A stretch of 47,749 nt of DNA from Elusimicrobiota bacterium (GCA_043819795.1 JBDREN010000151.1:1-47749); one strand, 5' to 3'. Numbered from the stretch's first letter, positions 12,615-33,368 are shown. Translations and numbers: made by a program. The notes: a model not told the origin generated them from the letters alone.

Positions 12615-12869
12615 GACCCTGCAACCCCCTTGGCCTCCCGCTCTTTAGCCGGCCACGTCGGACTGCCCCCCTGCCCGCCTTTTTACCTGCAATGCCGGCA
12701 GTGGCCGGTCTCCCCATATTGGGAAATATTCCGCAAAAAGGCGTTGCTGAAATGGGAATTATCCCATAAACTAATACCAGAAGACTTCGTCATTGGCAGA
12801 ATAATAATGCGCCATGGACCTATAGTGAGAGACACCGAGCAGAAATGCAGGACGGTGACAGGGGTGGAT

Positions 12870-13196: not shown

Positions 13197-13198
13197 GA

Positions 13199-15210: not shown

Positions 15211-16137
15211 TTACCACGCTGATTGTTCCCGCGCTTTCCCCCATCGCCAAGTCACACTGAAGCGGTGGGCCGAGCCGAGCTCCCCGAAAGGCTCGAAGGC
15301 GTAGTCCATTCTGTTGTCGCCCAGAAGCCACCCGATGCCGGCGGCGATCCCCGGGCCCGCGTCGTTGCGCGTGCCGTATCCCATGCGGAGCGGCAGTGCC
15401 CCGGCCACGACCGTCTCGACGCCCACGGCCATATTGGGGCTTTGGCTGCGCTCCTTCGTAACGTCCAAGGACAGGGTGTTCCACTGCCCTCCCAGCGCGA
15501 AGCGGTAGGCGGCGCCCATGCGGAGGTTCAGGGGCAGGTTCTCCCTGGCCTGCTGATACGTCACGGTACGCCCCATGTTCTGGACGGACATGCCCAAAGT
15601 TAGCCGCTCGACCGCCGGCACGTCGTAGAGGGCCCCAGCGTCGAAGGCGAGGCCGCCGGCCGAGATCCCGGCGATGGTCTCCCGGATCCATTTCGCCCCG
15701 ATGCCGGCCGACAGCCCGGGCAGCACCGTGCGTCCGTAGCCCAAGCCGACGGCGATATCATTGAGCGTTGCCGTCTCGCCGGTCCCGCCGGGCTGTGAGA
15801 TGGTCGTCCTCGGAACGTCCCCGAACCTGAGGAAATTCAGGTTCGCCCCCCACCCCTGTGCCGAAGCCAGCCCGAAGTATTCTTGCGCGACCCCCTGGAA
15901 GTACTCGTTGTGCATGAAGGTCGTTTCCAGCCGGTCCGTCCTCGCCAGCCCGGCCGGATTGTAAAGGAGCGCGTTGGCGTCCGAGGCCAGGGCCGTATAG
16001 GCGCCCGCCAGGCCCACGGGCCTCGCGTCGGCATCGAGGAACAGGAAATTCAAAGGCTCGGCGCCCGCGCCCCCCCAGCAAGGGCGCGCCAGGAACATCG
16101 CCAAGACGAATAGTTTAACGGTCCTGAAGGCGCTCAT
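15211..16137 (-). CDS. PorV/PorQ-like (UPF0164) outer-membrane beta-barrel
   Basis: FL..DARPVGLAGAYTALASDANALLYNPAGLA N-terminal motif, amphipathic strands, C-terminal DYAFEPFGELGSAHRFS; ATGA-coupled to the upstream giant gene. Confidence 0.88.
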   Translation of the reverse strand: MSAFRTVKLFVLAMFLARPCWGGAGAEPLNFLFLDADARPVGLAGAYTALASDANALLYNPAGLARTDRLETTFMHNEYFQGVAQEYFGLASAQGWGANLNFLRFGDVPRTTISQPGGTGETATLNDIAVGLGYGRTVLPGLSAGIGAKWIRETIAGISAGGLAFDAGALYDVPAVERLTLGMSVQNMGRTVTYQQARENLPLNLRMGAAYRFALGGQWNTLSLDVTKERSQSPNMAVGVETVVAGALPLRMGYGTRNDAGPGIAAGIGWLLGDNRMDYAFEPFGELGSAHRFSVTWRWGKAREQSAW

Positions 16138-19100
16138 CTGATGATCAGTATCTTCTTCACGACGGCCGCGTGTCCGGGGCTCTCGATCACGGCAAAATAG
16201 CCACCGGAGGCCACATGCTGCCCTGTCGTATTCTTTACGTCCCACTGCAGCTTGCCCGACGGATTGTCCGCCCCGAAACGATCCACCAGCTGGCCCGTGA
16301 TGGTGTAGATCTTGACGTTCACCGAAGCCGGTAGATTGTCGAATATGATTCCCGAGTTGGGGTCCGCGGAGCTGTACGGCACGCCGTCGTCCGAGCTTCC
16401 GCTGTTGGGCATGAACGGGTTCGGATAGACGCGGACGGTCATGAGGTCGGCGGCAGCCGCCGGCCCGAACAAAGCGAAGAAGCTGAAATGGGACGTCAGT
16501 CCGGTCACGGTCTTGCCGGCCGCATCGACGCTTGATGAAAGATCTTTCACCCAGGGCCCCGCAATCGTGGCGGCCGAGTACATGTCCAGGTCCGAGACCC
16601 GGATCACCGTTCCGTCAACGATACCGTCGTCGTTTACGTCTGGATAGGTCAAGACAATCGTCGCGGTCTTGCCCCCGCTGAGGGACGTCTGTCCGTTGGA
16701 GAGCGTCACCTCCGTGACCACGTTGGCCGCCTCCATGTCGGCCGGCGCGGGCGGGACGCTCGCGGGTTTGTTGACGACCGTGACGGTGACGGTCGAGGTG
16801 TTCACGGCTCCCGAAGGGATGGTCACCTTCGTGATCTGGGCCGAGTCGTCGTCCGCCGCCTGGACGGTGTTCGTCACCGCGCTGTTGATCTTCTGAGCCT
16901 TCTGGAGCTTCCCGGCGACGACGCTCTCATTGATGTCGAAATCAATGGTGTCGACCGCGATGCTCACCGTCGGAGGGGTCGCGTCGGCGTTGTTCTGGAT
17001 ATCCGCGGCGACGGCGCGGATATCGTGGTTCGCCGCGGAAAGACCGGTGACATCCCAGTGGACATAATACGGGGCGGTCCGGTCCGGATTCGGATTCTCG
17101 GCGCTGGCGGGGACGATATCGGTCCACGCCGACGCGTTGGAGGCCCGGTATTGGAAGCGGATCCGCTTGATCTGCGCCGCGTCCCCCAGGATGACTTCGG
17201 CCGCGACGCTCACGCGGTCTCCGGTCACCTTGCTGCCGGCCGCGGGGGACCTGATCGCGGCGCGGACACCCTGCAACGTGCTCAGAGAGGCGGCGGAGGC
17301 CAGCAAATGCGTGTTCGGATCCTCGACGCCGCACCTGTTGTGGGTCCGCAGCGCGAACCGATAGGCCGCGCTCGAGGGCAGTACGGCGGTCGTGTAGCTC
17401 GTCTCGGTCGAGGTCAACACGGCCAGCGGGGCGGAGTAATCAACGGTCCCGGTCCCGGTGTCGTAATAGAGGCGATACGCGGTGATCCCTTCGGACGGCG
17501 AGGGGGTCCAGCTCAAAGCGATGCGGTTCCCGGCCAAGGACACGGCCTCGAGGTTGCTCGGAGCCAGCGGCGTGGAGCTCTTGGTCTCGAACTGGACTGC
17601 GGAGTCATAAGCCGTCGCGACGGCGTCGCCGTTTATGTTGCGGACCCGGAAATAATAGGTCGTGCACATCCCAAGGCCCGGATCGGTGAAGGCCGTCGCG
17701 ACCCCCGCGAAGACGTTGCCGAAGGCCGCGTTGTCGGTCGACCGCTGCACTTCGGCGGTCGTCCCGGCCGGATTCGAGTTGAGCCCCCAGGTGATCGTCG
17801 CGCTCGTCGTCTGCACGTCGGAAGCGGCGGTGCCTGTCGGCGGATTGGCGTGCGTATATGCGGCCGCGGTGGCGGAGTCCGCGCTGCTGGGCCCGTTGAA
17901 TGCCCGCACGAACAGCGGCCCCGACTGCGTGTTCGTCGAAACGCCCGTCTGCGTCCACGAAGCGGTATCGGCCGGCAGATCCCCTGATAGGCTTGCCGTC
18001 CCCGACATCACGCGGAAACCCTGCTCGTCGTTCGAGTTGTCCGTCCAGGACCAACGTATCGACGCTTCTCCCAGGGCCGCGCCCGCGAAGCCGGAAGGCG
18101 CTGCGGGAGCCGGCGGCACATATAGGCTCTGCTCCGCGGACTCGGCGCTGCGCAAGAGCTCGCCGTCCTCCGCGACCACGGCCCAATAGTACGTCGCGCC
18201 GTTTTGCGCCGCTAGTTTCAGGCCTCTCTGCGAGGCGGACAGGCGGACGCTGTAAAGCGAGGACCCTCCTCCGGAGGCGCCGTCCAAGCCGTAGCGCGGG
18301 GGGATCTTTAGGATGCCGCCCCCGCCGGGACTCGTCCCCAGCCGCACGAAGTAATTGAGCGCGGCGGCCGGGGTTTGCGCGTCGGAGCCGGCATCCCAAC
18401 GCAGGCTCAGAACGCCCGAGCTGGTCGAGCCCGCATACTGCTCGAATGACAAGCCGAAACCCGAGTTGGGCGCGCCGGGGTCGCTGTGCGCGGACAAAAG
18501 GAGGTTCTGCGCGATGACGACGTCCTGGCCGAGCTGGTTCGAGAACGCCAGGTCCAAGTCCCCGTCGTTGTCGTAGTCTCCCCACGAGACGCCGTGCGTG
18601 TCCCCGGTCGAGTCCGCGATGGCGAACTGCGAGAACGCCCCGTTGTTGTTGATCGCGACGGTCTCGTGCTGGCCGACGAAGTTGGCGAACGCCAAGTCCA
18701 GGTCCCCGTCGTTGTCGTAGTCGCCCCAGGCGAGGCCGTGCGAGGCGCTGTCCGCTCCCGGAAGCGCGACCTTCGTGAACGCTCCTCCGCCGTCGTTGCG
18801 CGCGAGGTATTGGCCCCCGTACGAGTTAGCCGCCGCGAAATCCAAGTCCCCGTCGTTGTCGTAGTCGCCCCAGGCGAAGCCGTACGAGGGCCCGCCCGTC
18901 CCCGCCAGCGAGAACCCCGCGAACGTCCCGTTCCCGTCGTTGCGGGCCAGGTAGTCGTCACCCGGACCGGCGAACCCCAGGTCCAGGTCCCCGTCGTTGT
19001 CATAGTCTCCCCAAGCGACGCCCTGCGCAGTTCCATTCACCCCCGGCAGCGTGAATGTGGAAAACGTCCCGTCGCCGTTGTTGCGCGCCAGGGATTCGTA

Positions 19101-22100
19101 CTCCCCGTAACCGTTGCCGACCGCCAGGTCCAGGTCCCCGTCGTTGTCGTAGTCGCCCCAGGCGATGCAGAACGAGCTCCCCCCCATCCCCGTCAGAGCA
19201 AGGGTCGTAAACGTCCCGTCGCCGTTGTTGCGGGCGACATATTGGTCTTGTCCCCTGTTGGCCACCGCCAAGTCGAGGTCCCCGTCGTTGTCGTAGTCGC
19301 CCCAGGCGACGCTCTCCGAGTCGCCGCCCGTGCCGGTCAGAACCACTTTCGTAAACGCGCCGCCGCCGTCATTGCGCAGGAGATACTCATCCTCTCCGCT
19401 CGTGTTGGCCACCGCCAAATCCAGGTCCCCGTCGTTGTCGTAGTCGCCCCAGGCGATGCCCCGGGAATCCCCCCCTGAGCCCGTAAGGACGTGAACGGAG
19501 AACTGGTTCGGCGCCAATGTGGCGGCGACGACCGTGTCGGTGAAGCCGGTCGGTATAGCGTCGTTGTTCAGCGCGCGGACCTTGTAGGAATAGGTCGTCG
19601 CGGGCGTGAGGCCCGTGTCGGTGAAGGCGGCGGCGGTAGGCGTGGATATCCGGACGAAGCCGGACCCCGTGTCCCGGTAGACCTCGAAAAACGTCCCGCC
19701 GGGGTTCGTATTGGCGGACCACAGCAATCCGATGGTATCGGTGGAAACCGTGGCCGCCGCGAGACTGGTGGGAGCGGCCGCGAGCGTGAACAGGGAGTCG
19801 GAGCCCGAGTTCGCCGTATTGGAGCCCCGGAACACTTGGACGAATAGGGGCCCCGCCAGCGTATTGGTCGAAAGCCCCGTCTGCGTCCAGGAGGTGGTGT
19901 CGGCCGGAAGATCGCCCGAGATGTTCGCCGCGCCGTACATCACGCGGAAGCCGTCCTCGTCGCTGGAGTTGTCGGTCCAAGACCAGCGGACTGCAGTCTG
20001 CCCCAATACCGTCGCCGCGAAGCCGGAGGGTGTGGCGGGATGCGTGGGCGCGAAGATGCCCTGCTCGGCCGACTCGGCGCTGCGACGAAACTCGCCGTCC
20101 TCCGTCACGACGGCCCAATAATACGTCGCGTCGCGCGGAAGCGAGAGCTTCAGGCCCCTCTGCGAGTTTGAGAACCGGCCGCTGTAGAGGAACCCTCCGG
20201 ACAGGCCGTCGGGGCTGTAGCGCGCGGGGACTTTTAGGATCTCGCCGCCGCCGGGGGTGGTGCCCACCCGTACGAAGTAGTTGAGCGCGGCGGCCGGGGT
20301 CTCAGAGTCGGCGCCTGCCGCCCACTGGAGGGTCAAAATCCCGGAAGCGGAGCCCGGGGAATGCTCCTGGAACGAAGAACTGAAACCCGCGCTGGGCGCC
20401 GTGGGGCTGGAATGCGTTCCAGCGATATCGTTGCGGGCGATGTATTGGTCCGCTCCTCCCTGGCCGGCCACCGCCAAGTCGAGGTCCCCGTCGCCGTCGT
20501 AGTCCCCCCAGGCGATCCCGTAGGAGTCGCCGCCCGTCCCCGGCAAGCCGATCGCCGTGAACGTGCCGTCGCCGTTGTTGCGAAGGACATAATCGGCCTG
20601 CGGACTACGATTGGATACGGCCAGGTCCAGGTCGCCGTCATTGTCGTAGTCGCCCCAGGCGATTCCACGCGAATCTCCGCCTGTGCCGGTGAGCTCGATC
20701 TTCGTGAACGTCCCGTTGCCGTTATTGCGGGCGATGTATTCGTCCTCACCGGACTGGTTCGCGACTGCCAGGTCCAGGTCCCCGTCGTTGTCGTAGTCGC
20801 CCCAGGCCAACCCGACGGAGTCCCCCCCCGTCCCGGCCAACGTGCCCGTCGAGAACGATCCGTCGCCGTTGTTGCGCACGAGGGCTTCGTCCTCGGAGCC
20901 GAGATTGGCCACGGCCAGGTCCAGGTATCCGTCATTGTTATAGTCGCCCCAGGCGATGCCCGCGGAATCCCCTCCGGTTCCGGAGAACGTGACGGTCGAG
21001 AACGAGCCGTCGCTGTTGACCCGGGCGATGTATTCGTTCTCGCCGTTCCGATTGGAGATGGCCAGGTCCAGGTCCCCGTCGTTGTCGAAATCGCCCCAGG
21101 CTACGGCTTGAGAGGCTCCGCCCGAACCGGCCAACACGATCTTCGTGAAGACGCCGCCCCCGTCGTTGCGCGCGATGTACTCGTCCTGCGACCCGGATGA
21201 GTTGGCCACCGCGAAATCAAGGTCGCCGTCGTTGTCGTAATCGCCCCAGGCGATCCCGTAGGAGTCTCCGCCGGTCGTCGCCAGCGTGCTTTTCGTGAAC
21301 GTCCCCCCTCCGTCGTTCCGCAGGAGGAATTCATCCTCAGCGCCGGCGTTGGCCACCGCCAGGTCCAGGTCCCCGTCGTTGTCATAGTCGCACCAAGCCA
21401 GGCCCGACGAGTCACCGCCTGTGCCGGCTAAAGTCTGAATGGTGAACGGGGGCGCGGCCCCTGTCGTCGTTGAGACCGTGGCGCTGAAAGCGGTCGCTAT
21501 GGACTCTCCATTGAACGCCCGCACCTTGTAGGTGTAGGTGCTGAACGTGGCAAGCTCGGCGTGCATGAAGCTCGTCAAAGTGCCGGAGCCCACCGCCACG
21601 AAGCCCGCCCCGCTGTCCCGATGGACCTCGTAGAGCGTGCCGGCGGGATTGCCGTCGGCGGACCAGCCCAGCTGTATGGTCGTGAAGTAGACATCCGTGA
21701 CGGCGAGGCCGGAAGGCGGGGCGGCGAGCGTATGGGCGGAAGCCGTGCCGGAGGCGGTGGTTCCCCCGATGTTGACGGCCAGAACGTAATATGGCCCGAC
21801 CTGCGTGTTCGTCGAGACGCCGGTCTGGACCCAATACGTCGTGTCGGCCGCCAGTTCGCCGGAAAGGTTCGTTCCGCCCGACATCACACGGAAACCGGCC
21901 TCATCGGCGGAGTTGTCCGTCCACGACCAGAGGATCGAGGTCGGGCTCAGGGCGGTTCCCGAAAAATCGGAGGGCGCGTACGAAGGCGGCGGCGGCACCA
22001 GCAGGCTCTGCTCGGCCGATTCCGAGCTGCGCAGGAGCTCGCTATCTTCGGTGACCACGGCCCAATAATAGGTCGCCCCGCGCTGCATTGACAGCCTCAG

Positions 22101-23519
22101 GCCACGCTGAGTGCTCGACACGCGCACGCTATACAAGGAAGACCCGCCGCCCGAGAAACCGTCTAGGCTGTAGCGGGCGGGGACCGGCAGGATTTGACTC
22201 CCCCCGGGGACTGTACCCACGCGAACGAAATAATTAAGCAGCCTCCCCGGAGTCTCGGCGTCGGAGCCCGGGGTCCATTGCAGAGAAAGGACGCCGGAGG
22301 TGGAATATAGGGAGTACTCCCGGAAAGAGGCTGCGAACCCCCAGGTGGGCGCGCTGGGGCTATTGTGCGTCGCAGCCAAGTTGTTGCGCACGATGAGCTC
22401 ATCCTCGGCGTCCGCGTTCGCCACGGCCAGGTCCAGGTCGCCGTCCCCATCGTAGTCGCCCCAACTGATGCCGCGGGAATTCCCCCCTGTTCCGGTCAAC
22501 GTATTTATTGAGAATGCTCCACTCCCCTGGTTGCGCGCGATGTATTCGTCCTGGCCGTTGGCGCCGGCCGCCGCGAAGTCGAAGTCGCCGTCGTTGTCGT
22601 AATCGCCCCAGGCCACGCTTTGGGAGGCTCCCCCCGTCCCCGCCACCGTGACCTTTGAGAAGGTTCCGTCGCCGTTGTTGCGCGCGACATAGTCTTCCCG
22701 GTCGCTGTTGGCCACAACGAGGTCGAGATAACCGTCGCCGTCGTAATCTCCCCAGGCGATCGATTCAGAGCTGCCGCCGGTCCCCGTCAAGGTAAAGATC
22801 GAGAACGCGCCATCCCCCTCGTTGCGGGCGACGTATTCATCCTGGCCGGCGACGTTCGATACCGCCAAATCAAGGTCTCCGTCGTTGTCGTAGTCGCCCC
22901 AGGCGATACCCGTGGAGTCCCCGCCCGTGCCCGTCAGGGCCAACTTCGTAAACGTTCCGTCGCCGTTGTTGCGCGCTATGTATTCGTCCTCCCCGCCGGT
23001 GTTGGCCACCGCCAGGTCCAGGTCCCCGTCGTTGTCGTAATCTCCCCAGGCGACGCCGGTCGAGTTTGCCCCCATGCCTGTCAAGGCGATTTTCGTGAAC
23101 GTCCCGTCGCCGTTGTTGCGGGCGATGTATTCGTCCTCCCCGGCGGCGTTGGCCACCGCTAAATCCAGGTCGCCGTCGTTGTCGTAGTCTCCCCACGCGA
23201 TTCCTTGGGAACTGCCGCCTGTGCCGGTCAACGTGACTATGGTGAAGGAACCGTCGCCGTTGTTGCGCGCGATCAATTCGTCTTGCCCGCTTGCGCCATC
23301 GTTGGCGATCGCCAGATCCAAATCCCCGTCGTTGTCGTAGTCGCCCCAGGCGACGCCCAGGGAGTCTCCGCCTGTGCCGGTTACAGTGCTGGTAGAAAAC
23401 TGCCCACAAGTAAGCGCCGGGAAGGAGATGGACAAGAACAAGACGAACAACAGACGGAGCCACAGGAAGCTGCGGATGGCGGGAAGTCCGTCTCGGGGCC
23501 GCGGAGGCCGTTGCCTCAT
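16134..23519 (-). CDS. 2,461-aa secreted FG-GAP/VCBS repeat protein: three 7-bladed propellers, FN3/Ig domains and a T9SS-type C-terminal domain
   Basis: 21 WGDYDNDGDLDL-type repeats in three blocks of seven; FN3 motifs; C-terminus VYPNPF...VKIYTITGQLV...WD...VASGGY...KKILIIR. Confidence 0.9.
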   Translation of the reverse strand: MRQRPPRPRDGLPAIRSFLWLRLLFVLFLSISFPALTCGQFSTSTVTGTGGDSLGVAWGDYDNDGDLDLAIANDGASGQDELIARNNGDGSFTIVTLTGTGGSSQGIAWGDYDNDGDLDLAVANAAGEDEYIARNNGDGTFTKIALTGMGANSTGVAWGDYDNDGDLDLAVANTGGEDEYIARNNGDGTFTKLALTGTGGDSTGIAWGDYDNDGDLDLAVSNVAGQDEYVARNEGDGAFSIFTLTGTGGSSESIAWGDYDGDGYLDLVVANSDREDYVARNNGDGTFSKVTVAGTGGASQSVAWGDYDNDGDFDFAAAGANGQDEYIARNQGSGAFSINTLTGTGGNSRGISWGDYDGDGDLDLAVANADAEDELIVRNNLAATHNSPSAPTWGFAASFREYSLYSTSGVLSLQWTPGSDAETPGRLLNYFVRVGTVPGGSQILPVPARYSLDGFSGGGSSLYSVRVSSTQRGLRLSMQRGATYYWAVVTEDSELLRSSESAEQSLLVPPPPSYAPSDFSGTALSPTSILWSWTDNSADEAGFRVMSGGTNLSGELAADTTYWVQTGVSTNTQVGPYYVLAVNIGGTTASGTASAHTLAAPPSGLAVTDVYFTTIQLGWSADGNPAGTLYEVHRDSGAGFVAVGSGTLTSFMHAELATFSTYTYKVRAFNGESIATAFSATVSTTTGAAPPFTIQTLAGTGGDSSGLAWCDYDNDGDLDLAVANAGAEDEFLLRNDGGGTFTKSTLATTGGDSYGIAWGDYDNDGDLDFAVANSSGSQDEYIARNDGGGVFTKIVLAGSGGASQAVAWGDFDNDGDLDLAISNRNGENEYIARVNSDGSFSTVTFSGTGGDSAGIAWGDYNNDGYLDLAVANLGSEDEALVRNNGDGSFSTGTLAGTGGDSVGLAWGDYDNDGDLDLAVANQSGEDEYIARNNGNGTFTKIELTGTGGDSRGIAWGDYDNDGDLDLAVSNRSPQADYVLRNNGDGTFTAIGLPGTGGDSYGIAWGDYDGDGDLDLAVAGQGGADQYIARNDIAGTHSSPTAPSAGFSSSFQEHSPGSASGILTLQWAAGADSETPAAALNYFVRVGTTPGGGEILKVPARYSPDGLSGGFLYSGRFSNSQRGLKLSLPRDATYYWAVVTEDGEFRRSAESAEQGIFAPTHPATPSGFAATVLGQTAVRWSWTDNSSDEDGFRVMYGAANISGDLPADTTSWTQTGLSTNTLAGPLFVQVFRGSNTANSGSDSLFTLAAAPTSLAAATVSTDTIGLLWSANTNPGGTFFEVYRDTGSGFVRISTPTAAAFTDTGLTPATTYSYKVRALNNDAIPTGFTDTVVAATLAPNQFSVHVLTGSGGDSRGIAWGDYDNDGDLDLAVANTSGEDEYLLRNDGGGAFTKVVLTGTGGDSESVAWGDYDNDGDLDLAVANRGQDQYVARNNGDGTFTTLALTGMGGSSFCIAWGDYDNDGDLDLAVGNGYGEYESLARNNGDGTFSTFTLPGVNGTAQGVAWGDYDNDGDLDLGFAGPGDDYLARNDGNGTFAGFSLAGTGGPSYGFAWGDYDNDGDLDFAAANSYGGQYLARNDGGGAFTKVALPGADSASHGLAWGDYDNDGDLDLAFANFVGQHETVAINNNGAFSQFAIADSTGDTHGVSWGDYDNDGDLDLAFSNQLGQDVVIAQNLLLSAHSDPGAPNSGFGLSFEQYAGSTSSGVLSLRWDAGSDAQTPAAALNYFVRLGTSPGGGGILKIPPRYGLDGASGGGSSLYSVRLSASQRGLKLAAQNGATYYWAVVAEDGELLRSAESAEQSLYVPPAPAAPSGFAGAALGEASIRWSWTDNSNDEQGFRVMSGTASLSGDLPADTASWTQTGVSTNTQSGPLFVRAFNGPSSADSATAAAYTHANPPTGTAASDVQTTSATITWGLNSNPAGTTAEVQRSTDNAAFGNVFAGVATAFTDPGLGMCTTYYFRVRNINGDAVATAYDSAVQFETKSSTPLAPSNLEAVSLAGNRIALSWTPSPSEGITAYRLYYDTGTGTVDYSAPLAVLTSTETSYTTAVLPSSAAYRFALRTHNRCGVEDPNTHLLASAASLSTLQGVRAAIRSPAAGSKVTGDRVSVAAEVILGDAAQIKRIRFQYRASNASAWTDIVPASAENPNPDRTAPYYVHWDVTGLSAANHDIRAVAADIQNNADATPPTVSIAVDTIDFDINESVVAGKLQKAQKINSAVTNTVQAADDDSAQITKVTIPSGAVNTSTVTVTVVNKPASVPPAPADMEAANVVTEVTLSNGQTSLSGGKTATIVLTYPDVNDDGIVDGTVIRVSDLDMYSAATIAGPWVKDLSSSVDAAGKTVTGLTSHFSFFALFGPAAAADLMTVRVYPNPFMPNSGSSDDGVPYSSADPNSGIIFDNLPASVNVKIYTITGQLVDRFGADNPSGKLQWDVKNTTGQHVASGGYFAVIESPGHAAVVKKILIIR

Positions 23520-23655: not shown

Positions 23656-25704
23656 TCATTCGAGCACCGCCAAGGATTCCCCCTTCCAGGGGTCTCCCAC
23701 GTCCACGGCTGGAAGCAACTTGGGCTCCTGCTCCCGGTGGCTTTCCCTGGCCCGTACCACCACCTTGGGCCACGCGTAGCTGTAGAGCTCGATGAGCGAG
23801 ATGCGCTTGTCCTGGTCGGCGTCCGCCTCCCCTTGGAGGCCCCTCAGCAGATAATAGGTCATGAGGCCGTGCTGCTTTTCCTCAAAGGTGCCGCTCATCT
23901 GGGTCCCGGACGCCGCTGAAAGAACGGCTATCTTACCCGAAGCCAACACCGGGTCTTCGATGACCGGTACGATCGGGCGGGTCCCTTTCGCGAGCACCGT
24001 CCTGGGTCCCCCGACGCCCGAGAAACAGGCGTCCAGGATGACCAACCCGCGCTTCATGGGGAGCTCTCCCAGAGCCTCATACAGCTTGCTCAACGAATAG
24101 CCCCCCTGCTGGATGGTCGCCGGGGACGCGTCATAAGGCACCAGATATCCGTGGCCGGTGGTCGGCTCGGGCGTGCCGTGGCCCGAGTAGTACACGAATA
24201 CCTCCGATCCTGCCGTCACCTTCTCCTTGAGCCAGGCTTCCAGGTATGCCTTGAAGTCGCCCAGCGCGGCGCGATCGTCCACCCGCAGCACGATGTTTTC
24301 GGGAGGGATTCCCAACGCGCGCTCAAAATACTCCCTGACCCTCCGGGCATCCCGGGCCGCGTAATCCGCGTGGATTATGTCTCGATAGCGTTCTATCCCG
24401 ATGACCACACCAAAAGCGCTCTTTCGGGACGTACGGTAGTTGGGAAGCTCCTTGAGCTCAGCGCCGCCCAACGGCCTCCCATCCGCGCCCGGCTTGCCTG
24501 AAGGCTTGCCGGATTCCCGCATCTCTTTGCTCAGGCCAGCCATGAGGGCGCCCTCCGCCAGCTCTCGAGCCTTCTTGTCCTTCGGATCGAGGTGGAGCGC
24601 CATGTTGCCATAGGTATGGGCGCGTTCGTGTTGTCCGGCGGCCAGGGCTCGCTGCCCCTCTTTCATGTACTCGGCGAATTTCCGCGTCCCTTCTCGACGT
24701 TCAGCGCGCCGCTGCTTGAAGCCGTCGATCCGCCCGCCTATCTTCGCGTATAGCTCATCTCTCCAAACGGCTCTGGCCAGCATCTTCTCCTTCGCCGGGG
24801 CTCCCCACGCCGCTCTCAGAGTCACCCGATGGCTAAGCCCCAGGACCGAATGTTGGGTCATCGCATAGTCTATACCGGTGGACTTATACTGCCAGCTGGC
24901 GCCGAACGTGGGGCCGATCCCGTCATAGCCGGTGCGGAACGCCGCGTTGCTCAGGAATGAATACTCCATTCCGAAGCGGTAGTCGGTCACACCCGCGCGG
25001 GTGACGATGTCGAGGCTCGCGAGAAGCGGCTCAAAGACGGCGACCGCGCCCCCCACATGCAGCGCCCGAGGGAGCTTGTCCACTCCCCCATCCCGGGCGA
25101 GCTCGGCCCCAAGGATGTTCTGGACCTGCAGGCCGGCCCGATATCTGCCGCGCCTGCCGGAAAATCCCACGTCGGTGTCGAAGCCGGAAGACGAGAAATC
25201 GGCCAACTCCCGTCTAATGACCTTGTGGGTGAATCCGAAAGAGAACGCCCGCAAAGGCTGAACGCCCCAGCCGAACAAAAGAGCCCTGCGCGTGTCCGTG
25301 AAACTCCCGATTTCGTTGTTGGAAGCGTCTCGTTGCACGAGTCCGCTGTTATCGAAAGACACGAGAGACAGACCGACGCCGATCGGCCTCTTGAAGGCAT
25401 GGGCGAAGGAGAGCTCGTCGAGCGTCGCACCCTCGAAGAGGGACATTCGGGTGAAGGAGGCTCCGTTCCGGTAAGGGAGCCCGATTCCTCCGGGATTCCA
25501 TATAAGGGCTTCCGGCCCCTCAGCGATCGCGCCAAAGGCACGGCCCATCCCCAGAGCCCGGGCGCCGGAGCCGAATTCGAGGAAGCTCCCCGGGATGCCT
25601 CCATCAAATCTACTGGCCCAGACCGAGGCGGGCGCAAGCAGGGCACACAGGGTGCCCGCCACCCACCCCCAGTAACACAGCCTTCTACAAATCTTGGCAA
25701 GCAT
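23656..25704 (-). CDS. Fusion protein: PorV-like beta-barrel, helical/TPR linker, caspase-family (peptidase C14) domain
   Basis: FL..GSGARALGMG.AF.AIA....LIWNPGG barrel start, ending HRVTLRAAWG (aa ~300); C14 motifs GVVIGIERY, A.RDA, YYSGHG (H509), ILDACFSG (C560), HGLMTYYLLRGL.GEAD. Confidence 0.88.
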   Translation of the reverse strand: MLAKICRRLCYWGWVAGTLCALLAPASVWASRFDGGIPGSFLEFGSGARALGMGRAFGAIAEGPEALIWNPGGIGLPYRNGASFTRMSLFEGATLDELSFAHAFKRPIGVGLSLVSFDNSGLVQRDASNNEIGSFTDTRRALLFGWGVQPLRAFSFGFTHKVIRRELADFSSSGFDTDVGFSGRRGRYRAGLQVQNILGAELARDGGVDKLPRALHVGGAVAVFEPLLASLDIVTRAGVTDYRFGMEYSFLSNAAFRTGYDGIGPTFGASWQYKSTGIDYAMTQHSVLGLSHRVTLRAAWGAPAKEKMLARAVWRDELYAKIGGRIDGFKQRRAERREGTRKFAEYMKEGQRALAAGQHERAHTYGNMALHLDPKDKKARELAEGALMAGLSKEMRESGKPSGKPGADGRPLGGAELKELPNYRTSRKSAFGVVIGIERYRDIIHADYAARDARRVREYFERALGIPPENIVLRVDDRAALGDFKAYLEAWLKEKVTAGSEVFVYYSGHGTPEPTTGHGYLVPYDASPATIQQGGYSLSKLYEALGELPMKRGLVILDACFSGVGGPRTVLAKGTRPIVPVIEDPVLASGKIAVLSAASGTQMSGTFEEKQHGLMTYYLLRGLQGEADADQDKRISLIELYSYAWPKVVVRARESHREQEPKLLPAVDVGDPWKGESLAVLE

Positions 25705-25722: not shown

Positions 25723-28134
25723 CTATTTCACGCCGATCTTCACGATCTCCCTCTTGCCGCCGGCATCCACCACGCAGATGTAGCCTCCCATCTCCACATG
25801 CCGCCCGTCGCCCGACCTACCGTCCCAAAACACCTCATTGGGACCGATTCGCCCCCCGTTCGATCCCGCGCTGTAGCGGGTGTCCCGAGCAAGCCGGCCG
25901 AACGGATCGTAGATGCGGATCCTTACGTCCCGGTTCTGGTCCAGGGAGTAGCGGATTCGGGTCTGTTGCCCCCGCAGCGGCGAAAACGGGTTGGGGTAGT
26001 TCGTAAGACTCTCGAGAGCGCTCGCGGCCGGGGAAAAAGCCATTATCCCGAAGAGCGTGAAATGGTCTACACGGCCCGTGACCTTCCTGGTCACCGTATT
26101 CACACTGGAGTTCGGTATCAGCACCCAATAGCCCCGCGACTCGTCGTAGTAGAACAGCCGCAGGCTCGCTTCATCCATCCCCGCCACGTCGACGGCCGTG
26201 TAGGTGAGGGTGATCGTGATGTCCTTCTGGAATCGCGTGGTGCCGTTCACCATCTGGATATCCTTGATGACAGAGGTGGCCGTTACCCCGGATCCCTTTG
26301 AAGAAGGCGGTGATCCGACGGGTGGTTGGATGTTGATCAAGGTCGCGGCGGACAGCGCGCCTGCCGGTATCTCCACCTTCACGCCGTCGGCTGTCTCGAG
26401 AACGGAGTCGCCTGCGGGGTCCACCGTGGCATCGACAATGAACTTGTAGTGGATCGCCTGCGTGCCGACGTTGCCTGCGCCGTCTTTGGCGACGGCGTGG
26501 AAGTACCAGGTGCCGTTCGTTAGGAGCGATCTCGCCTGGATCGGATTCGGGCTGAAGTCGTCCGAGGCTGCCGGCACGCCTCCCGGGTTCCTGTCGATCA
26601 TCCAGTGATACCCTGCTATGCCGGACGGATCATTCGGCCCTGAGAGGTTGAATGCCGGGTTTATTGCAGGGTAGGCGACGTTCTGATTCGGATGGGACGG
26701 CGAGGTCGCGGCCGTCGGAATGTCGGGAGCGGTCCGGTCGACCAAGGTCCCGGCGCTCCAGCCGGAGTATCCGGTATAATCCCCATCCAGATTCCTCGCT
26801 CGGACCCGCGCGTAGTATATCTTGTCCCCCTGAGCGCCCGATATCGTTTGGCTGAGCACATCTCCAACATCCCCGTCGAAAATGCTGGCGTCATTGGAAT
26901 CCGAGTCGGTCCCTATCTGAATATAGTAGCCGGAGATCCCGCTCTCGGGGTCCGAGGCGCTCCCCTGCCCCCAAGCAAAAGTCATCGTCCCGGAAATTGA
27001 GAAGGCATCGCCAACAGGAACGGAGGGGATCCCAAGAGGTCCGGTCGTGTCGGGAACCCACATGCCGAACCGGAGACCCGCGTCAGTCGTCCCGTAGATG
27101 ATCAGCGTATTCCCGGTTGGATCGAACCCTAGGGCGGGAATGTACCAAAGCGATGTCCGCAAATCCTCGACGCTAGACGAGATCCAACTCCGACCGTTCC
27201 ACTTCGCGTACATTGGGCTGGCATGGGGATGAGCTTCCGCAATGAAGCTGATCTCCGGATTATCGGCGGAGTCGAGCACGATAGACGGCTGATGAGGCTG
27301 GCCCAGCGAGACCGTCTGCGTGGACCACGCGACTCCCGTCCAGCGAGCGTACTTCACGGATCGGGGATCATCCCAACCATAGGCGATATGCGGGATCCCC
27401 GCGGAATCGACCGCGATAGAGACTTCTCTAGTGAGTGTCGCTTCTACGGTTTGGGTCGACCAAGAGACCCCGTTCCATTCGCCATAACCCAAAGAAGCGC
27501 CATAATGATCGTTGTACGCGATGTGAGGCTTTCCGGCCGGGTCAAGAGCCAAAGAGCTATAGAGCCCGAACCCCCATACCTCGGCGATCGTCATTGTCGA
27601 CCAGGAGACACCCGTCCATACTGCGTATTTAAGATCGCGGCAGTCGTTACCGCAGTAGCTGATATGCGGATTCCCAGAATCATCGACGGCGATCGAGGCC
27701 ATCGCGTCCGGAAAAGTCGTGATGGCCCCAGCCGGGTCGACAAGCTGAATGTCCCAAAGGAGTCCTTGAAATCTCGCGTACATCAGTCCCTGATCTTGGT
27801 GATAAGCTATATGCACGCCACCAAAGTCGTCCACGTCGATAGACGGCTTCCACCGGTTCCCCGTCGAGCTGGCGGCCGAATCAACGAACTGGGATGTCCA
27901 GCCCGAGCCGGTTCTCTTGATGTGTCGCAGCGTATCGGGGTCCCAGTCGAGACAGGCGAGGTGGACATCGCCCGCGGAATCCACGACCATGTTCGAGCAA
28001 GTCATCCCCCCCGTGGGGAACGATTCAAAAGACCATAAAGCTTCCGCCCGATGGACGAAAAGCGTCCCCGCGCCCAGGAGGGCCAATGCCAGACCCCCAA
28101 CGAAACATCTCATCGGTCTCTCGGCTCCTTTCAT
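25723..28134 (-). CDS. Secreted protein with propeller-like repeats, FN3 domains, a ZU5-like region and a T9SS/FlgD-Ig-type C-terminal domain
   Basis: Repeated SIAVD..G.PHIAY...LKYA.W.G..W; C-terminus NYPNPF...IRIYD..G.L...WDGR...GGY...KIGVK. Confidence 0.82.
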   Translation of the reverse strand: MKGAERPMRCFVGGLALALLGAGTLFVHRAEALWSFESFPTGGMTCSNMVVDSAGDVHLACLDWDPDTLRHIKRTGSGWTSQFVDSAASSTGNRWKPSIDVDDFGGVHIAYHQDQGLMYARFQGLLWDIQLVDPAGAITTFPDAMASIAVDDSGNPHISYCGNDCRDLKYAVWTGVSWSTMTIAEVWGFGLYSSLALDPAGKPHIAYNDHYGASLGYGEWNGVSWSTQTVEATLTREVSIAVDSAGIPHIAYGWDDPRSVKYARWTGVAWSTQTVSLGQPHQPSIVLDSADNPEISFIAEAHPHASPMYAKWNGRSWISSSVEDLRTSLWYIPALGFDPTGNTLIIYGTTDAGLRFGMWVPDTTGPLGIPSVPVGDAFSISGTMTFAWGQGSASDPESGISGYYIQIGTDSDSNDASIFDGDVGDVLSQTISGAQGDKIYYARVRARNLDGDYTGYSGWSAGTLVDRTAPDIPTAATSPSHPNQNVAYPAINPAFNLSGPNDPSGIAGYHWMIDRNPGGVPAASDDFSPNPIQARSLLTNGTWYFHAVAKDGAGNVGTQAIHYKFIVDATVDPAGDSVLETADGVKVEIPAGALSAATLINIQPPVGSPPSSKGSGVTATSVIKDIQMVNGTTRFQKDITITLTYTAVDVAGMDEASLRLFYYDESRGYWVLIPNSSVNTVTRKVTGRVDHFTLFGIMAFSPAASALESLTNYPNPFSPLRGQQTRIRYSLDQNRDVRIRIYDPFGRLARDTRYSAGSNGGRIGPNEVFWDGRSGDGRHVEMGGYICVVDAGGKREIVKIGVK

Positions 28135-28168: not shown

Positions 28169-28675
28169 CTACGGCTTCTTGCCCGCGGCCTGCTCGATCT
28201 CCTCCTTGCGGAGCTCGTCGAAGAGCTCCTCGGAGCGCTTATTGAGGAACTTCTTCGTCCTCTCGGTGAGCTGCGGCGCGTTCTGCATCACCCTCCTGAA
28301 CTCGTCGAGATCCAGCTTGGCCAAAGAATGGATCGTTTCGCCCTTCTCGTATCTGTCCACGATGCGGACGCCCGAGATGTGTCCTGCGCTGAAGGTCTTG
28401 ATCACGCGGTCCACCATCTCGCCTTCCGTGCCGTCGTACTCCTTCATTAGGTAGCCGGTGTAGGTGTCGAAATACCTCTGAAGGTCGGCGCGGGCCCGGT
28501 TGTCGGCGGCCTCCATGCGCAGGTTCCTGCTGCGTATGCCCTCATCCGCTTGCCCGACGCCGTAGAACACCTTGTCGCTCGGCTTGAACGCGGCCGAGCC
28601 CTTCTTCGCCCACTTGGGGGTGCCGGCGCACCCCGAAATCGCGGCTATGATAGCCAAAATGGCGATTCGTTTCAT
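28169..28675 (-). CDS. LPP20-like lipoprotein
   Basis: MKRIAILAIIAAISG-C lipobox, P.W, FYGVG, AADNRARADL; SD GGGAGG. Confidence 0.75.
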   Translation of the reverse strand: MKRIAILAIIAAISGCAGTPKWAKKGSAAFKPSDKVFYGVGQADEGIRSRNLRMEAADNRARADLQRYFDTYTGYLMKEYDGTEGEMVDRVIKTFSAGHISGVRIVDRYEKGETIHSLAKLDLDEFRRVMQNAPQLTERTKKFLNKRSEELFDELRKEEIEQAAGKKP

Positions 28676-28751: not shown

Positions 28752-29765
28752 TCATTTGCGGGCTTTCCTGGATCTGATCTCATAGGACGCGACCTGCATC
28801 GTCCATTCGTAGCGCTCCAGCTTGGCGAGCCTACGCATGACCTCCGCCATCTTCCCCATGCTCACGGCGGCGTACGGATCTTGCCGCCTCAGCGGGACCG
28901 CAGCCTCCGGGGGCATGAGTTCCTTCTTGGCCGCCACAACCAAGAGCCTTTCGGTGACTACGGACTCTCCGCGGGGCAGCATCGCCCTGTAGGCTATGCC
29001 GCTGCCTTCGCCCGGGATATCGACCAGCTCGCCGGCCTTCACGCGGTTGTCCGTCTGTAGACGGTTGGGAAAGACCATGAAGATGTTGTCCCGGCTGTCC
29101 CAGCTGAAGACGTATAAGCGGGCGTCCCTCGATACCGACAACGCGATCCGCACCGGCTCGCCTTCGTAGTATTGGCTTCGGTCGATCCCAAGGGGCGTCC
29201 CCGAACGGCGGTCCAATATCTGGAACGCGGGGTCGACAGCCCCCTTGAATACGATCGTCCCGCGGACGCGGACCCGGCAGGTCGTGACGCCGTCCCCGAC
29301 ATCGCACTCCGGCTCCCCGGCCTTCTCGTTCATGAGCAGCCCGCGGTTGGAGGAGAAAAGAAACCTCGCCACGGCTTCGTAGCGGTCCTTCCCCATCTGG
29401 GAGGAGTAGTCGCTGAAGCCGTAGAAGATGTCCGTGCCCTTGCGCATCGCCTTGGCACGGGCGTCCTCCTTCGCCCGCCTCACGGCCGTTTCTTGGGTTT
29501 CGTGACTGAGGGCCTTCCCGACGCCGGTCTCATCGAACCGGACAGTCTCGTCTTCGGTCCGCGTCCACGATTCCGCCGGACTCGGGACGGACCCTCTCCT
29601 GAGCCTATCCGACTCCGGCCCCGCATATTCTCGCTGGGCCGTCCCCTTCTCAAGCGTCCGCATCTCGCGCAGCCCCTCGTCCAGGCGCGGCTTCATACTC
29701 GCGGGCGCGGGGGGGCCGGCGCAGGAGGCCGAGAGCACCAGCGCCGAAATGAGCATCCACCTCAT
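28752..29765 (-). CDS. Lipoprotein with a C-terminal DUF4384-like domain
   Basis: Lipobox SAS-C; Y..GEPVRI......DARLYVF.......MVFPN......VKAG...IP pattern. Confidence 0.75.
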   Translation of the reverse strand: MRWMLISALVLSASCAGPPAPASMKPRLDEGLREMRTLEKGTAQREYAGPESDRLRRGSVPSPAESWTRTEDETVRFDETGVGKALSHETQETAVRRAKEDARAKAMRKGTDIFYGFSDYSSQMGKDRYEAVARFLFSSNRGLLMNEKAGEPECDVGDGVTTCRVRVRGTIVFKGAVDPAFQILDRRSGTPLGIDRSQYYEGEPVRIALSVSRDARLYVFSWDSRDNIFMVFPNRLQTDNRVKAGELVDIPGEGSGIAYRAMLPRGESVVTERLLVVAAKKELMPPEAAVPLRRQDPYAAVSMGKMAEVMRRLAKLERYEWTMQVASYEIRSRKARK

Positions 29766-29935
29766 GGTTTTTGCGTTCCGAGCTCTTTTTCGAACTCCGC
29801 CTCTCCCTGGGCGGGCGGCAGCTCCTTGAACAGGGATTCAGCCCTCATGCGGACATCGTTCTTGGGCGGCGAAGCGCAGCCCAGAGGCATTATCCCTAAT
29901 GCGAGCGCCAGCAACGCCGCCGTCAGCCGAGACAT
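29762..29935 (-). CDS. Small 57-aa lipoprotein
   Basis: MSRLTAALLALALGIMPLG-C lipobox; SD GGGAG; ATGA coupling to the next gene. Confidence 0.7.
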   Translation of the reverse strand: MSRLTAALLALALGIMPLGCASPPKNDVRMRAESLFKELPPAQGEAEFEKELGTQKP

Positions 29936-30366: not shown

Positions 30367-30984
30367 ATGCCGGAAAACCAAATCGAGCCTCTAGCGAGCT
30401 CCCTGACGCTGGTCAGGCAGGCCAAAGAAGGCGACACCGAGGCGCTCGACGCGCTCTTCAGGCGCTACGCCTCCCGCGTGCTCCATATCGCCCGCGTCCG
30501 GCTCGGGCCGGGCTTGCGGACGAGACTGGACTCCCAGGACATCGTCCAGGAGGCCTTCATCCGCGCGGTCAAAGGGTTCGGGAAGTTCGAGGTCCGGCAT
30601 GAGGGGGCGTTCCTGCACTGGATGAGCGAGCTGGTCAGGAACGCCATCCGCGACCAATACGACTATTTCCACGCGAAGAAGCGCGCGATGTCCAGGGACG
30701 TGGCCCTCATCCGGCCCACCGATTTGACGGACCACGGGGCTGCGACCGTCCCTGGGTTCGACCCTACGCCCAGCCGGGTGTTCGCGGCGAGGGAGGACAT
30801 CCAGAAGCTGGTCGATGCCATGGACCGGCTCCCCGAGGAAGCCCGGGAGGCTGTGGTGCAAAGGGATATGGAAGGCCTGCCCTTCGCCGAGATCGGGAAG
30901 ATGATGGGCCGCTCGGAGGACGCGGCGCGCATGCTCTACGCCCGCGCCAAGGCCAAGCTGGCAGCCTTGATGCAGGCCTCATAG
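30367..30984 (+). CDS. ECF sigma factor of the kinase-associated (planctomycete-like) type
   Basis: AKEGDTEALDALFRRY, LRTRLDSQDIVQEAF, HAKKR, TPSR, region 4 HTH; followed by a Ser/Thr kinase. Confidence 0.88.
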   Translation: MPENQIEPLASSLTLVRQAKEGDTEALDALFRRYASRVLHIARVRLGPGLRTRLDSQDIVQEAFIRAVKGFGKFEVRHEGAFLHWMSELVRNAIRDQYDYFHAKKRAMSRDVALIRPTDLTDHGAATVPGFDPTPSRVFAAREDIQKLVDAMDRLPEEAREAVVQRDMEGLPFAEIGKMMGRSEDAARMLYARAKAKLAALMQAS

Positions 30985-30986
30985 CG

Positions 30987-33368
30987 ATGGGCGATTCCGA
31001 GAAGCCGACCAGCGTTGACGCCATCATGGAGGCCTTCCTCGAGGCGCAGGCCAGAGGCGAGGCTCCCGACCAGGAAGCCCTCTTGAAGGAGCATCCCGAG
31101 CACAGAGAACAGTTTCAAGCCCGTCTCGCTGCCTTGGGCCGGGTCGACGACTGCTTTCGCATGATCCGCGAAAGCTCCTCGCAGGGAGACGGGCCTAGGG
31201 TCGAGATTCCTAAGAACCTGCGGATCACCGGGTACCGAATACTGGACAAGATCGGCGAGGGGGGCATGAGCGCGGTCTTCCTGGCGGAGCAGACCGCTCT
31301 CAAGAGGCTGGTGGCCCTCAAGGTCATGTCCCCGGCGTGGTCCAGCGACGCGCGCTCCATCGCCCGCTTCAAGCGCGAGGCGGAGACCATCGCCCGGCTC
31401 GCGCATCCGGGAATCGTGCCCATCCATCACTTCGGGGGTGAGGATGGGACCCACTTCCTGGTCCTCGATCTCGTCTCCGGCATCGACTTGGGGAGCCTGA
31501 TCCAAGGACTCAAGGGATCCGGCGTCCCGGAGAACGGACTCCCGGTCCTGGAGATCATGCGAGGGCGTATGGACCGGATCGGCGCGGTCGCCGCCGAGCA
31601 TGGGAAGCGGCCGGACGATCCGGGAGCCGACAAGGAGTTCTGGTCACGGCCCTATCCCGAGATTTGCGCAACGATTCTCCGTGACGTGGCGGCCGCCCTG
31701 GAATGCGCCCACGAGAAAGGCGTGATACACCGCGACATCAAGCCGTCCAACATCATCGTCTCACCGGACGGCAAGCCTCGGATCATAGACTTCGGGCTGA
31801 CGCTTCCCGAATCGGCGGACGCCCTGACGCGGTCGACGGACTTCCTCGGCACCGTCCTGTACGCTTCGCCCGAGCAGGTATCGGGAAGCGCGCACGACGT
31901 GGGGCCTCAGAGCGATCTGTTCTCTTTAGGCGCGGTCATGTACGAGCTGTTGACCCTGCGGCGGCCCTTCGAGGGAGGATCCCTCTCTGAGGTCTTCGAG
32001 AAGCTGACCCGGCAAGACCCCCCCTCCATGCGGAGACAGACGTCTCAGGTCCCCCCTGATTTGGAAACCATCTGCTTCGTGGCCCTCGAGAAGGAAGGCA
32101 AGCATCGCTACGCCTCGGCCAAGGAGCTCAAGGACGACCTCCAACGGTTCTTGGACCACCGCACGATAAGAGCGCGGCCCACTCCGCTCATGCGGAGACT
32201 GGGCAAGCTGATCCGCAGAAATCCCGTTCCCATCGCCGCGGCGGCCCTCCTGCTCGCGGCAGGCGGGGGTTTCTGGTGGAAGCTCGCCCATACGCGGTCC
32301 ACGGCATCGCAGGCGAGCCATGAGCTGGCCGAGGCGCGGTCCAGGCTTGAGCAGGCCCGCGAGGCCTCTGAACAAGATGTGCGGCAGGAACGATACCTCC
32401 GCATCGTCTCTGAAGGAAAGGCATTGCTGAAAGAAGGCCATTCGGAAAGGGCGCAGAAGTTGTTCTCCGATGCGATAGAGCTGGCGCCGGAGAGGCCGGA
32501 AGCATACCTCACCCGCGCCGAAGCCTCCTTTCTATCAGAATCGGGTCTGTCGCATGCCCTGGCCGACATCCGGAAGGCGGAAGCCCTACAAACGCCCGGC
32601 CGGGATGCCCTGACCTTGAAGGCGGCCGTCCTCCACCGTCTAGGAAGGAACGAAGAGAGCATCCAGACGGAAAGGGAGATCCTGAGGCGTTTCCCGAACG
32701 ACCGCGAGGCCTCGATCAGGCTGTCCTACAGGCTGATGGAATCCAAGGAGTACCCCGAAGCCGCTAGCCTTCTTGAGGAGCGCATCAAGAGCAACCCCGA
32801 CGACCCCGAGCTTCTAACGGCCGCGGCCTGGGCCGACCTGGGGCTCGAGAGGGTCGAAACAGCGTTGGCGCGCGCCGGAAAGGCCGCACGGATCGCTCCG
32901 AGCAATGCGTCGGTGCATATGGCGCTGGGGCACGCGTTGATGCGGTCGAAGCGCTATGCGGAGGCCGCCGGCGCCTTTTCACTATTGCTCAAGGTGGAGC
33001 CCGCCAACGTCAAAGCGAGGCTCCTGTGCGCCGAGGCCCTGACTCTGGCGGGCGAGCTGGAGGCGGGAGAAAGACAGTTCCTCGCGTCCCTGGACCAGGG
33101 CGCGGCCGATGCGCGGGCGCTTCAGGGACTGGCTGGGAATCTGGTCCGGCAGGGCAGGGTGGAGGAAGCGGTCGGGCTATACAAGCGGAGCTTGGCGGCG
33201 GGCGAAGGGAACGCGAGCACGCTCATCATGATCGCGGAGTTGCTCGAAATCGTCGGCCGCCCCGATGAAGCCGTCGATTTTTATGAAAGAGCCGGCAAGC
33301 TCGCCACCTCCGACAGCGACCGGCAGCACGTCAAAGAGAAGCTCGACAAGCTATTGAACAAGCCGTAG
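30987..33368 (+). CDS. Hanks-type Ser/Thr protein kinase with a TM segment and C-terminal TPR array
   Basis: IGEGGMSAV, VALK, HRDIKPSN, DFGL, GTVLYASPEQ, SDLFSLG; TM IAAAALLLAAGGGFWW; multiple TPRs. Confidence 0.95.
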   Translation: MGDSEKPTSVDAIMEAFLEAQARGEAPDQEALLKEHPEHREQFQARLAALGRVDDCFRMIRESSSQGDGPRVEIPKNLRITGYRILDKIGEGGMSAVFLAEQTALKRLVALKVMSPAWSSDARSIARFKREAETIARLAHPGIVPIHHFGGEDGTHFLVLDLVSGIDLGSLIQGLKGSGVPENGLPVLEIMRGRMDRIGAVAAEHGKRPDDPGADKEFWSRPYPEICATILRDVAAALECAHEKGVIHRDIKPSNIIVSPDGKPRIIDFGLTLPESADALTRSTDFLGTVLYASPEQVSGSAHDVGPQSDLFSLGAVMYELLTLRRPFEGGSLSEVFEKLTRQDPPSMRRQTSQVPPDLETICFVALEKEGKHRYASAKELKDDLQRFLDHRTIRARPTPLMRRLGKLIRRNPVPIAAAALLLAAGGGFWWKLAHTRSTASQASHELAEARSRLEQAREASEQDVRQERYLRIVSEGKALLKEGHSERAQKLFSDAIELAPERPEAYLTRAEASFLSESGLSHALADIRKAEALQTPGRDALTLKAAVLHRLGRNEESIQTEREILRRFPNDREASIRLSYRLMESKEYPEAASLLEERIKSNPDDPELLTAAAWADLGLERVETALARAGKAARIAPSNASVHMALGHALMRSKRYAEAAGAFSLLLKVEPANVKARLLCAEALTLAGELEAGERQFLASLDQGAADARALQGLAGNLVRQGRVEEAVGLYKRSLAAGEGNASTLIMIAELLEIVGRPDEAVDFYERAGKLATSDSDRQHVKEKLDKLLNKP

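Follow-up and report, generated by a model that had tools for sequence, protein, structure and literature searches.

A PorV-type outer-membrane barrel fused to a caspase-family domain in Elusimicrobiota

What would a caspase-family protease do at the end of a PorV-type outer-membrane barrel? The question is raised by an open reading frame (ORF) at positions 23,656 to 25,704 of a 47,749-nucleotide stretch of Elusimicrobiota DNA (GCA_043819795.1 JBDREN010000151.1:1-47749), referred to below as the window. Passive carriage is the known role of PorV-type barrels, and the caspases of bacteria have mostly been studied as cytoplasmic enzymes of cell death or defence. We found that the barrel-caspase architecture is real and recurrent; the component domains belong to known families, and their combination in one protein is the new part.

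The fusion protein and its recurrence

The 682 codons of the ORF are uninterrupted and the window contains no N. The ORF begins 18 nucleotides past the stop codon of the gene for an 803-residue putative cargo protein, with GAGAGG just 5' of its ATG. The features of the fusion are as follows.

23656..25704, minus strand, fusion protein ORF, 682 residues (P0001; open reading frame and homologues)
25615..25704, minus strand, likely Sec signal peptide, residues 1-30 (by eye; homologue N-termini are signal-like up to FDGG)
24805..25614, minus strand, predicted 14-stranded barrel of PorV/FadL fold with N-terminal hatch, residues 31-300 (NF033709, model, structure matches, co-fold)
24640..24795, minus strand, charged 52-residue helix (304-355), likely a periplasmic stalk (model and alignment)
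24511..24630, minus strand, TPR-like helical hairpin (359-398), followed by a disordered linker (399-412) (model; Pfam TPR in sister barrels only)
23659..24462, minus strand, C14 caspase-family domain (415-682), with His509 at 24178-24180 and Cys560 at 24025-24027

A preliminary description of this DNA had read the ORF as a signal peptide, a PorV-type barrel, a charged helix with a TPR-like repeat and an intact C14 domain. Most of this was borne out. The putative signal peptide, judged by eye, has a basic n-region, a hydrophobic core and V-W-A ahead of SRFDGG. NCBIfam PorV_fam (NF033709) matched residues 40-297 with 94.9 bits against a cut-off of 90, and Pfam Peptidase_C14 (PF00656) matched residues 433-661 with 39.2 bits against 21.4. 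The catalytic dyad lies where it had been placed, SGHG starting at residue 507 and DACFSG at 558. No stop separates the domains, and the N-terminal half models as a PorV-type barrel. For the TPR-like repeat, a helical hairpin appeared in the model, whereas the fusion protein itself gave no Pfam TPR match.

A homologue search with the fusion protein returned 13 proteins out of 8,000 scored candidates. Eight proteins besides the query, all from other assemblies, matched 93-98% of the fusion length at 35-69% identity, and the three named full-length homologues are Elusimicrobiota. The length of the stalk helix differs between homologues. Because these eight proteins match nearly end to end, the fusion is very unlikely to be an assembly error; misassembly was rejected on their evidence and on the even GC content at third codon positions along the gene (0.73-0.79). 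Read-derived contigs from three runs cover fragments of the gene, none spanning the barrel-helix junction by at least 31 letters, and a metagenome scan with the fusion protein as query gave one locus, matched in the caspase part alone.

In a set of 113 rows, 16 barrels including that of the fusion form a clade (support 100), whose tails comprise 11 caspases, three CsgG-like domains and one Ig-like domain only, with one barrel having none; the cargo C-terminal domain (CTD) type is unchanged at the five caspase-free barrels. The clade caspases form three subtypes, and a single caspase clade was rejected for 10 sequences (approximately unbiased (AU) test, p 0.003, 39 rows) in a test from which a long branch and an unfused caspase lying within the clade caspases were excluded. 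The caspase nearest to the fused one also occurs on a WD40 protein (L082). Further fusions on other barrels were found at L140 (two in tandem), L161 and L162 and in four database proteins, and the L083 fusion is cut short near a contig end. Altogether 18 distinct barrel-caspase fusions carry at least three caspase subtypes and occupy three barrel groups in a tree of 72 selected barrels, in which a single barrel clade for the fusions was rejected (AU p 6e-5). Both His and Cys are retained in 17 of the 18, the exception being P0007. The fusion is rare: of 101 genomes in the order, 4 had close barrels, and when six candidates per genome were scored in a 401-genome sample of the phylum, five genomes supplied the top non-self matches.

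Some of these loci have features of their own. L140:1779-15179 (G339) carries two tandem pairs of a cargo and a barrel-Ig-caspase gene, the barrels from different groups and the caspases related. At L002:9591-12825, a CHASE2-adenylate cyclase and a FlgO/DUF4384 protein directly follow a barrel-Ig-caspase gene. A weak lead in the ESM Atlas (score 0.82) is an 89-member Bacteroidota cluster combining an outer-membrane protein beta-barrel with a caspase (PF00656 in 99%, PF13568 in 42%).

The caspase domain and the side of the membrane

The C-terminal part of the protein matched metacaspases and MALT1 about equally (Z 21-23); comparison with AtMC4 (6W8R) gave Z 22.6 and a root mean square deviation (rmsd) of 2.4 over 216 residues. 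A PDB sequence search with the fusion protein found only a metacaspase (E 0.66). In alignment A1 the His-Cys dyad was retained in 8/9 aligned sequences, while Asp452 and Asp558, which we take to be acidic S1 pocket residues, were invariant (9/9); Asp452 aligns with the metacaspase Asp of the fungal structure 7QP0. C14 enzymes other than caspases possess an acidic pocket and cleave after Arg or Lys (PMC5756287). From these residues, the fused caspase is probably an active protease with Arg or Lys at P1. Two other identities were considered and rejected: the EACC1-associated caspase model (NF047832) missed its cut-off (68 vs 140 bits), and a PorU-type C25 identity fails on a domain that is C14 and on an exit face opposite the CTD.

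In the genome (4.99 Mb, 90% complete), profiles from alignment A1 detected 28 PorV-like and 22 caspase ORFs, and 23656..25704 is the sole ORF with both parts. The dyad is kept in 21 of the 22 caspases, and 20 have an Arg after the catalytic Cys. By a crude rule, export-like N-termini were called for 22/22 caspases as against 501/1309 control ORFs, so an exported caspase appears normal in this organism. The caspases follow varied N-terminal parts, and 21 of the 22 are not near a PorV gene or cargo. Exported metacaspases are already recorded in a survey (PMC3501461). Exported caspases also stand in tandem in this genome (G000), four on contig C107, three on C175 and two on C169; their N-terminal domains differ, and in one the Cys is changed to Gly.

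An AlphaFold2 model of residues 31-682, built on an 89-row alignment (A2), had a mean pLDDT of 91.9 and a pTM of 0.57. Its order is hatch, 14 strands, helix 304-355, two helices 359-398, disorder 399-412 and caspase fold; A2 misplaces the TPR tails of sister barrels into caspase columns, and domain packing is not readable from the model. The nearest structures to the barrel were PorV 8GL6_F and 6H3I_F (Foldseek E 2e-13 and 1e-12), with Z 31.8 and rmsd 4.7 over 277 residues for the former and Z 31.5 and rmsd 3.7 over 272 for the latter, followed by FadL-family channels and BamG-type barrels. Narrower assignments were rejected: the equivalog cut-off of PorV proper, the general type A shuttle (NF033710), was missed (20.7 vs 250 bits), as was that of the PorQ model (49 vs 220 bits).

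The preliminary description had placed the C-terminus in the periplasm on the ground of the even strand number, and had proposed co-folding with the CTD of the upstream gene product. That co-fold, which paired the barrel with the C-terminal 100 residues of the cargo, scored 0.93 against 0.17 for the best control, passing a mark reached by 116/157 solved pairs and 2/215 mismatched pairs. Runs shared at least 96% of contacts, with a partner pLDDT of at least 93. Predicted contacts lie on loops L1-L7 and on the N-tail and hatch, where residues 31-41 with a conserved G-G-x-P-x-x-F touch the CTD; none lie on turns T1-T6. PorV binds CTDs through its extracellular loops (PMC10994853), and in FadL the N-tail passes to the outside (PMC12611786). 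Strand 14 of the modelled barrel runs from L7 to the turn side, opposite the CTD face. Since the CTD contacts lie on the loop face and strand 14 ends on the other, the stalk and caspase are most likely periplasmic, in line with the preliminary reading. Related barrels whose C-terminus bears an OmpA, SLH or SH3_3 tail in this position agree with such an exit. We rejected an intimin-like path in which the tail would pass through the barrel, the hatch filling the lumen and reaching the CTD face (model; PMC12611786).

Cargo, export machinery and neighbouring genes

The genes around the fusion include two cargo candidates, a second barrel and a group of upstream genes.

25723..28134, minus strand, likely cognate cargo, 803 residues, with repeats, ZU5-fold domain and CTD; ends 18 nucleotides 5' of the barrel gene
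25726..26025, minus strand, FlgD-type CTD of this cargo, nearest to PorU and PorZ CTDs (structure comparison)
26026..26430, minus strand, ZU5-fold domain of this cargo (model), with His-Phe-Thr (26056-26064) before the last strand, a possible self-cleavage site
16134..23519, minus strand, second cargo with FG-GAP/FN3, ZU5-type HFS motif and CTD; downstream, in the same orientation
15211..16245, minus strand, tail-less PorV-family barrel following the second cargo (profile matches)
28169..28675, minus strand, LPP20-like lipoprotein (Pfam, below cut-off)
28752..29765, minus strand, DUF4384 lipoprotein (Pfam and homologues)
29762..29935, minus strand, 57-residue lipoprotein-like ORF overlapping the DUF4384 start (start by eye; no homologue in the collected loci)
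30367..30984, plus strand, divergent extracytoplasmic function (ECF) sigma factor (TIGR02984 best, below cut-off; start by homology to L093)
30987..33368, plus strand, Ser/Thr kinase with one hydrophobic segment and C-terminal TPRs (Pfam)

Barrels directly follow a CTD-ending ORF in 19 of 28 cases in the genome and 65 of 93 in the collected loci. The nine best matches to the cargo CTD are the cargos of the nine other clade barrels with upstream DNA, and four clade-cargo CTDs examined group together as a single clade in a set of 115 (support 97). PorU and PorZ, whose CTDs are closest, both belong to the attachment complex (PMC8754138). As a translocon candidate the genome yielded only a SprA-like frame (G000:C134:12856-18522), which has 1,889 codons and ends in Phe. 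GldL, GldM, GldN and C25 (PorU) gave no match in the 90%-complete genome and GldK matched below cut-off only, nor did C25 match in 61 related genomes; because the search controls were mostly silent in the former search and silent in the latter, absence of GldL, GldM, GldN and C25 is not established.

Elsewhere in the genome, CTD cargos of at least 12,270 (G000:C218:1-36810) and 6,644 codons (C56:19552-39483) are each followed by a barrel-TPR gene. PorV-like barrels at L024:9890-11176, L029:6565-7821, L132 and L133 end in a FlgD-type CTD-like domain of their own, and the one at L024 adjoins a barrel-OmpA gene.

The 135-residue domain just ahead of the cargo CTD models as ZU5 (ankyrin ZU5 3UD2, Z 12.7, rmsd 2.6 over 124 residues), with weak Pfam ZU5 matches in 5 of 21 domain members. 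In the motif His-(Phe/Leu)-(Ser/Thr) the His is invariant in 21/21 rows, these rows having been chosen for the motif. The motif occurred in 30/121 cargos versus 76/5,700 random windows; in this genome it is present in 11 of 30 CTD cargos, mostly beside caspase-free barrels. Within the fusion-barrel clade 9/10 cargos have it, that of the window included, and the one without (L127) belongs to the one tail-less clade barrel (n = 1). It is absent from the cargos of the L161 and L162 fusions. GAIN domains self-cleave with such an arrangement, and papers on ZU5 autoproteolysis are cited there by title (PMC9539791); by analogy, self-cleavage at His-Phe-Thr is possible, which would offer type IX-like cargo a sortase-free release. 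The linker between ZU5 domain and CTD has no Arg or Lys in 5/5 caspase-linked cargos of the clade. This linker and the spread of the motif argue against the caspase as a CTD maturase and leave the ZU5-caspase link loose. In the second cargo of the window, a ZU5-type motif domain lies at about 16440-16895, directly before the CTD.

DUF4384 homologues were found in 13/301 genomes, the present one included. Their surroundings were examined in 9 of the 12 other genomes, and a caspase gene was present in seven of these nine, adjoining in four. At L093:4946-12980 (G047) a kinase, ECF factor, DUF4384, LPP20, tail-less PorV, WD40-caspase and small CTD cargo lie together, in an order rearranged from that of the window; the caspase part is 65% identical to the fused caspase, and this unfused caspase lies between the PorV gene and the cargo. 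In cyanobacteria, DUF4384 is fused to 23/473 orthocaspases (PMC8283722).

Farther out, next to the cargo cluster, lies what is likely a mobile or defence island (window positions 5314-14979), with a tyrosine integrase, one AbiEi-like gene and two AbiEii genes. Positions 34575-47515 hold a run of repeat-rich proteins (sulfatase, LamG/TSP3, FG-GAP/TSP3/FIMAH, beta-helix).

Possible roles and relation to known systems

The explanation we prefer is a cargo-anchoring barrel with a periplasmic Arg/Lys caspase that would serve envelope signalling together with the neighbouring lipoproteins, not cargo maturation; we hold it with confidence and doubt in equal parts. PorU and PorZ retain their CTD. The barrel would very probably be the dedicated carrier and lasting anchor of the 803-residue cargo, which would be exported via the SprA-like protein and is predicted to stay bound by its PorU/PorZ-type CTD. 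Almost certainly the stalk would hold the protease opposite the cargo, up to roughly 8-10 nm into the periplasm. The protease, probably specific for Arg or Lys at P1, would likely lie dormant until clustering or a nick in the Arg-bearing loop after Cys560. Its partners or substrates may or may not, with little to tip the balance, be the periplasmic DUF4384 and LPP20 proteins and possibly the TPR arm of the kinase, which could act on an operon-driving ECF sigma factor. The barrel would serve as an address for a protease beneath a surface protein, with a tail that is exchangeable and dispensable for export.

Several observations weigh against this explanation. The homologue P0007 has lost both catalytic residues, and Ala449 stands where metacaspases have a pocket Cys, whose mutation reduced activity in two metacaspases (PMC5756287). 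The three matches of the SprA-like frame reach 55 bits against 200. Because the pTM is 0.57, the placement of the caspase relative to the barrel is not fixed by the model. Since PorV-CTD complexes have already been solved, the co-fold pass may come from likeness or memory, and close cousin pairs pass too, so that no specificity can be read from it. A DUF4384 gene is present at only 4 of the 7 fusion loci with context; searches of L092 (16 kb), L140 (20 kb) and the short L001 gave none, and the kinase-ECF pair was seen in two loci only.

The preliminary description had also suggested that the protease might mature the cargo, and this was not supported. It had further suggested that cargo binding or damage might switch the protease, which may or may not be so. 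Cargo maturation is unlikely because sister tails differ with the same cargo type (five of the 16 clade barrels being caspase-free), because all 22 genome caspases look exported and because the cargo has the ZU5 motif; the pre-CTD linker without Arg or Lys and a predicted CTD site across the membrane also speak against it. In its strict form, a fused counterpart of PorV-PorU in which the caspase trims the CTD off as a PorU-like sortase, it is very improbable. PorU does work on PorV-bound cargo (PMC8754138), and C25 was without a match in the 61 genomes whose controls were silent, but the enzyme is C14 and lies on the face opposite the predicted CTD site. Quality control at the translocon, with the barrel docked on the SprA-like pore and the tethered protease clipping stalled or misfolded cargo at its periplasmic mouth, is unlikely. 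PorV docks at the lateral gate of SprA and cargo enters from the periplasm (PMC10994853), the origin of fusions on several barrel groups fits a carrier-tied use, and in a genome without GldL/M/N matches stalls might be cleared otherwise. However, those Gld searches had silent controls, most barrels are protease-free, including those beside the 6,644- and 12,270-residue cargos, and within the clade the caspase is swapped for non-enzyme tails.

Domain accretion with little coupling is rather unlikely: here a mobile C-terminal caspase of exported proteins would have landed on abundant barrels and would work as its 21 paralogues do. The 22 caspases behind varied N-termini in one genome, the nearest caspase on a WD40 protein, the high variability of PorV-barrel tails and the patchiness of the fusion within the order are consistent with this. 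In contrast, even at identities as low as 35%, 17 of 18 fusions still have the dyad, three caspase subtypes sit in one barrel clade, and the unfused caspase of L093 still lies between PorV gene and cargo, whereas 21 of the 22 genome caspases are near neither. A trans-membrane tripwire, in which shedding or degradation of a self-cleaved ZU5 cargo acts through the hatch or clustering on the caspase and leads to a kinase-ECF signal or cell death, is quite improbable. The hatch tail contacting the CTD in the co-fold, the ZU5 fold with His-Phe-Thr and the pairing of the motif-less L127 cargo with a tail-less barrel (n = 1) would fit it, and if true it would build PIDD1/NLRP1 logic from type IX secretion parts. 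Yet the motif is confined to 30 of 121 cargos, lies mostly beside caspase-free barrels in this genome and is missing at L161 and L162, a rigid 52-residue stalk and a disordered linker part the barrel from the enzyme, and no signalling through a PorV barrel was found in the available portions of the literature searched. The preferred explanation of a barrel-anchored protease for envelope signalling has a wider bearing: cargo outside and protease inside, built several times, point to periplasmic proteolysis tied to surface display, here in a compact system made up of a single barrel, CTD and protease together with two candidate lipoproteins.

The preliminary description knew of no characterised protein with the barrel-caspase architecture, and we likewise found no description of it in the literature searched, a scope that did not extend to supplementary domain tables, which could list it. 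No barrel fusion was found in the available text of two caspase surveys (PMC3501461, PMC8283722). Nor did we find a paper on type IX-like export in Elusimicrobiota, which here comprises dedicated cargo-carrier pairs and a SprA-like pore, with no motor or sortase detected.

Among known systems, PorV of the Flavobacterium johnsoniae type IX secretion system (6H3I and 8GL6, chain F) shares with the fusion a 14-strand FadL fold with hatch; CTD binding on extracellular loops is predicted for the fusion barrel, and the genome has the SprA-like frame below cut-off. Unlike PorV, the fusion barrel is one of 28 paralogues, mostly each with its own cargo, and has a 380-residue enzyme-bearing tail; unlike the canonical system, no GldL/M/N or PorU match was found in the genome, with search controls mostly silent. 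Porphyromonas gingivalis PorV-PorU/PorQ-PorZ likewise ties a cysteine protease to a PorV-type barrel, and the cargo CTD resembles the PorU and PorZ CTDs most. PorU belongs to the caspase-like clan CD; it is a separate C25 surface enzyme, whereas the fused enzyme is C14, covalently joined and likely periplasmic. Orthocaspases (MaOC1), metacaspases (Yca1, AtMC4) and MALT1 share the C14 fold, His-Cys dyad, S1-pocket Asp and DUF4384 association, but the fused caspase differs from them in being exported, tied to an outer-membrane barrel and without the pocket Cys. PIDD1, NLRP1 and CARD8 are ZU5/GAIN self-cleaving proteins linked to caspases. Their likeness to the present locus, a ZU5 domain with His-x-Ser/Thr ahead of a beta-sandwich and a caspase nearby, is one of analogy only; here ZU5 and caspase would stand on opposite sides of the membrane, loosely linked across loci. 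PorV-family barrels with TPR, CsgG-like, OmpA, SLH or SH3 tails have the same layout after strand 14, downstream of CTD cargo; their tails are binding modules, whereas that of the fusion is a protease.

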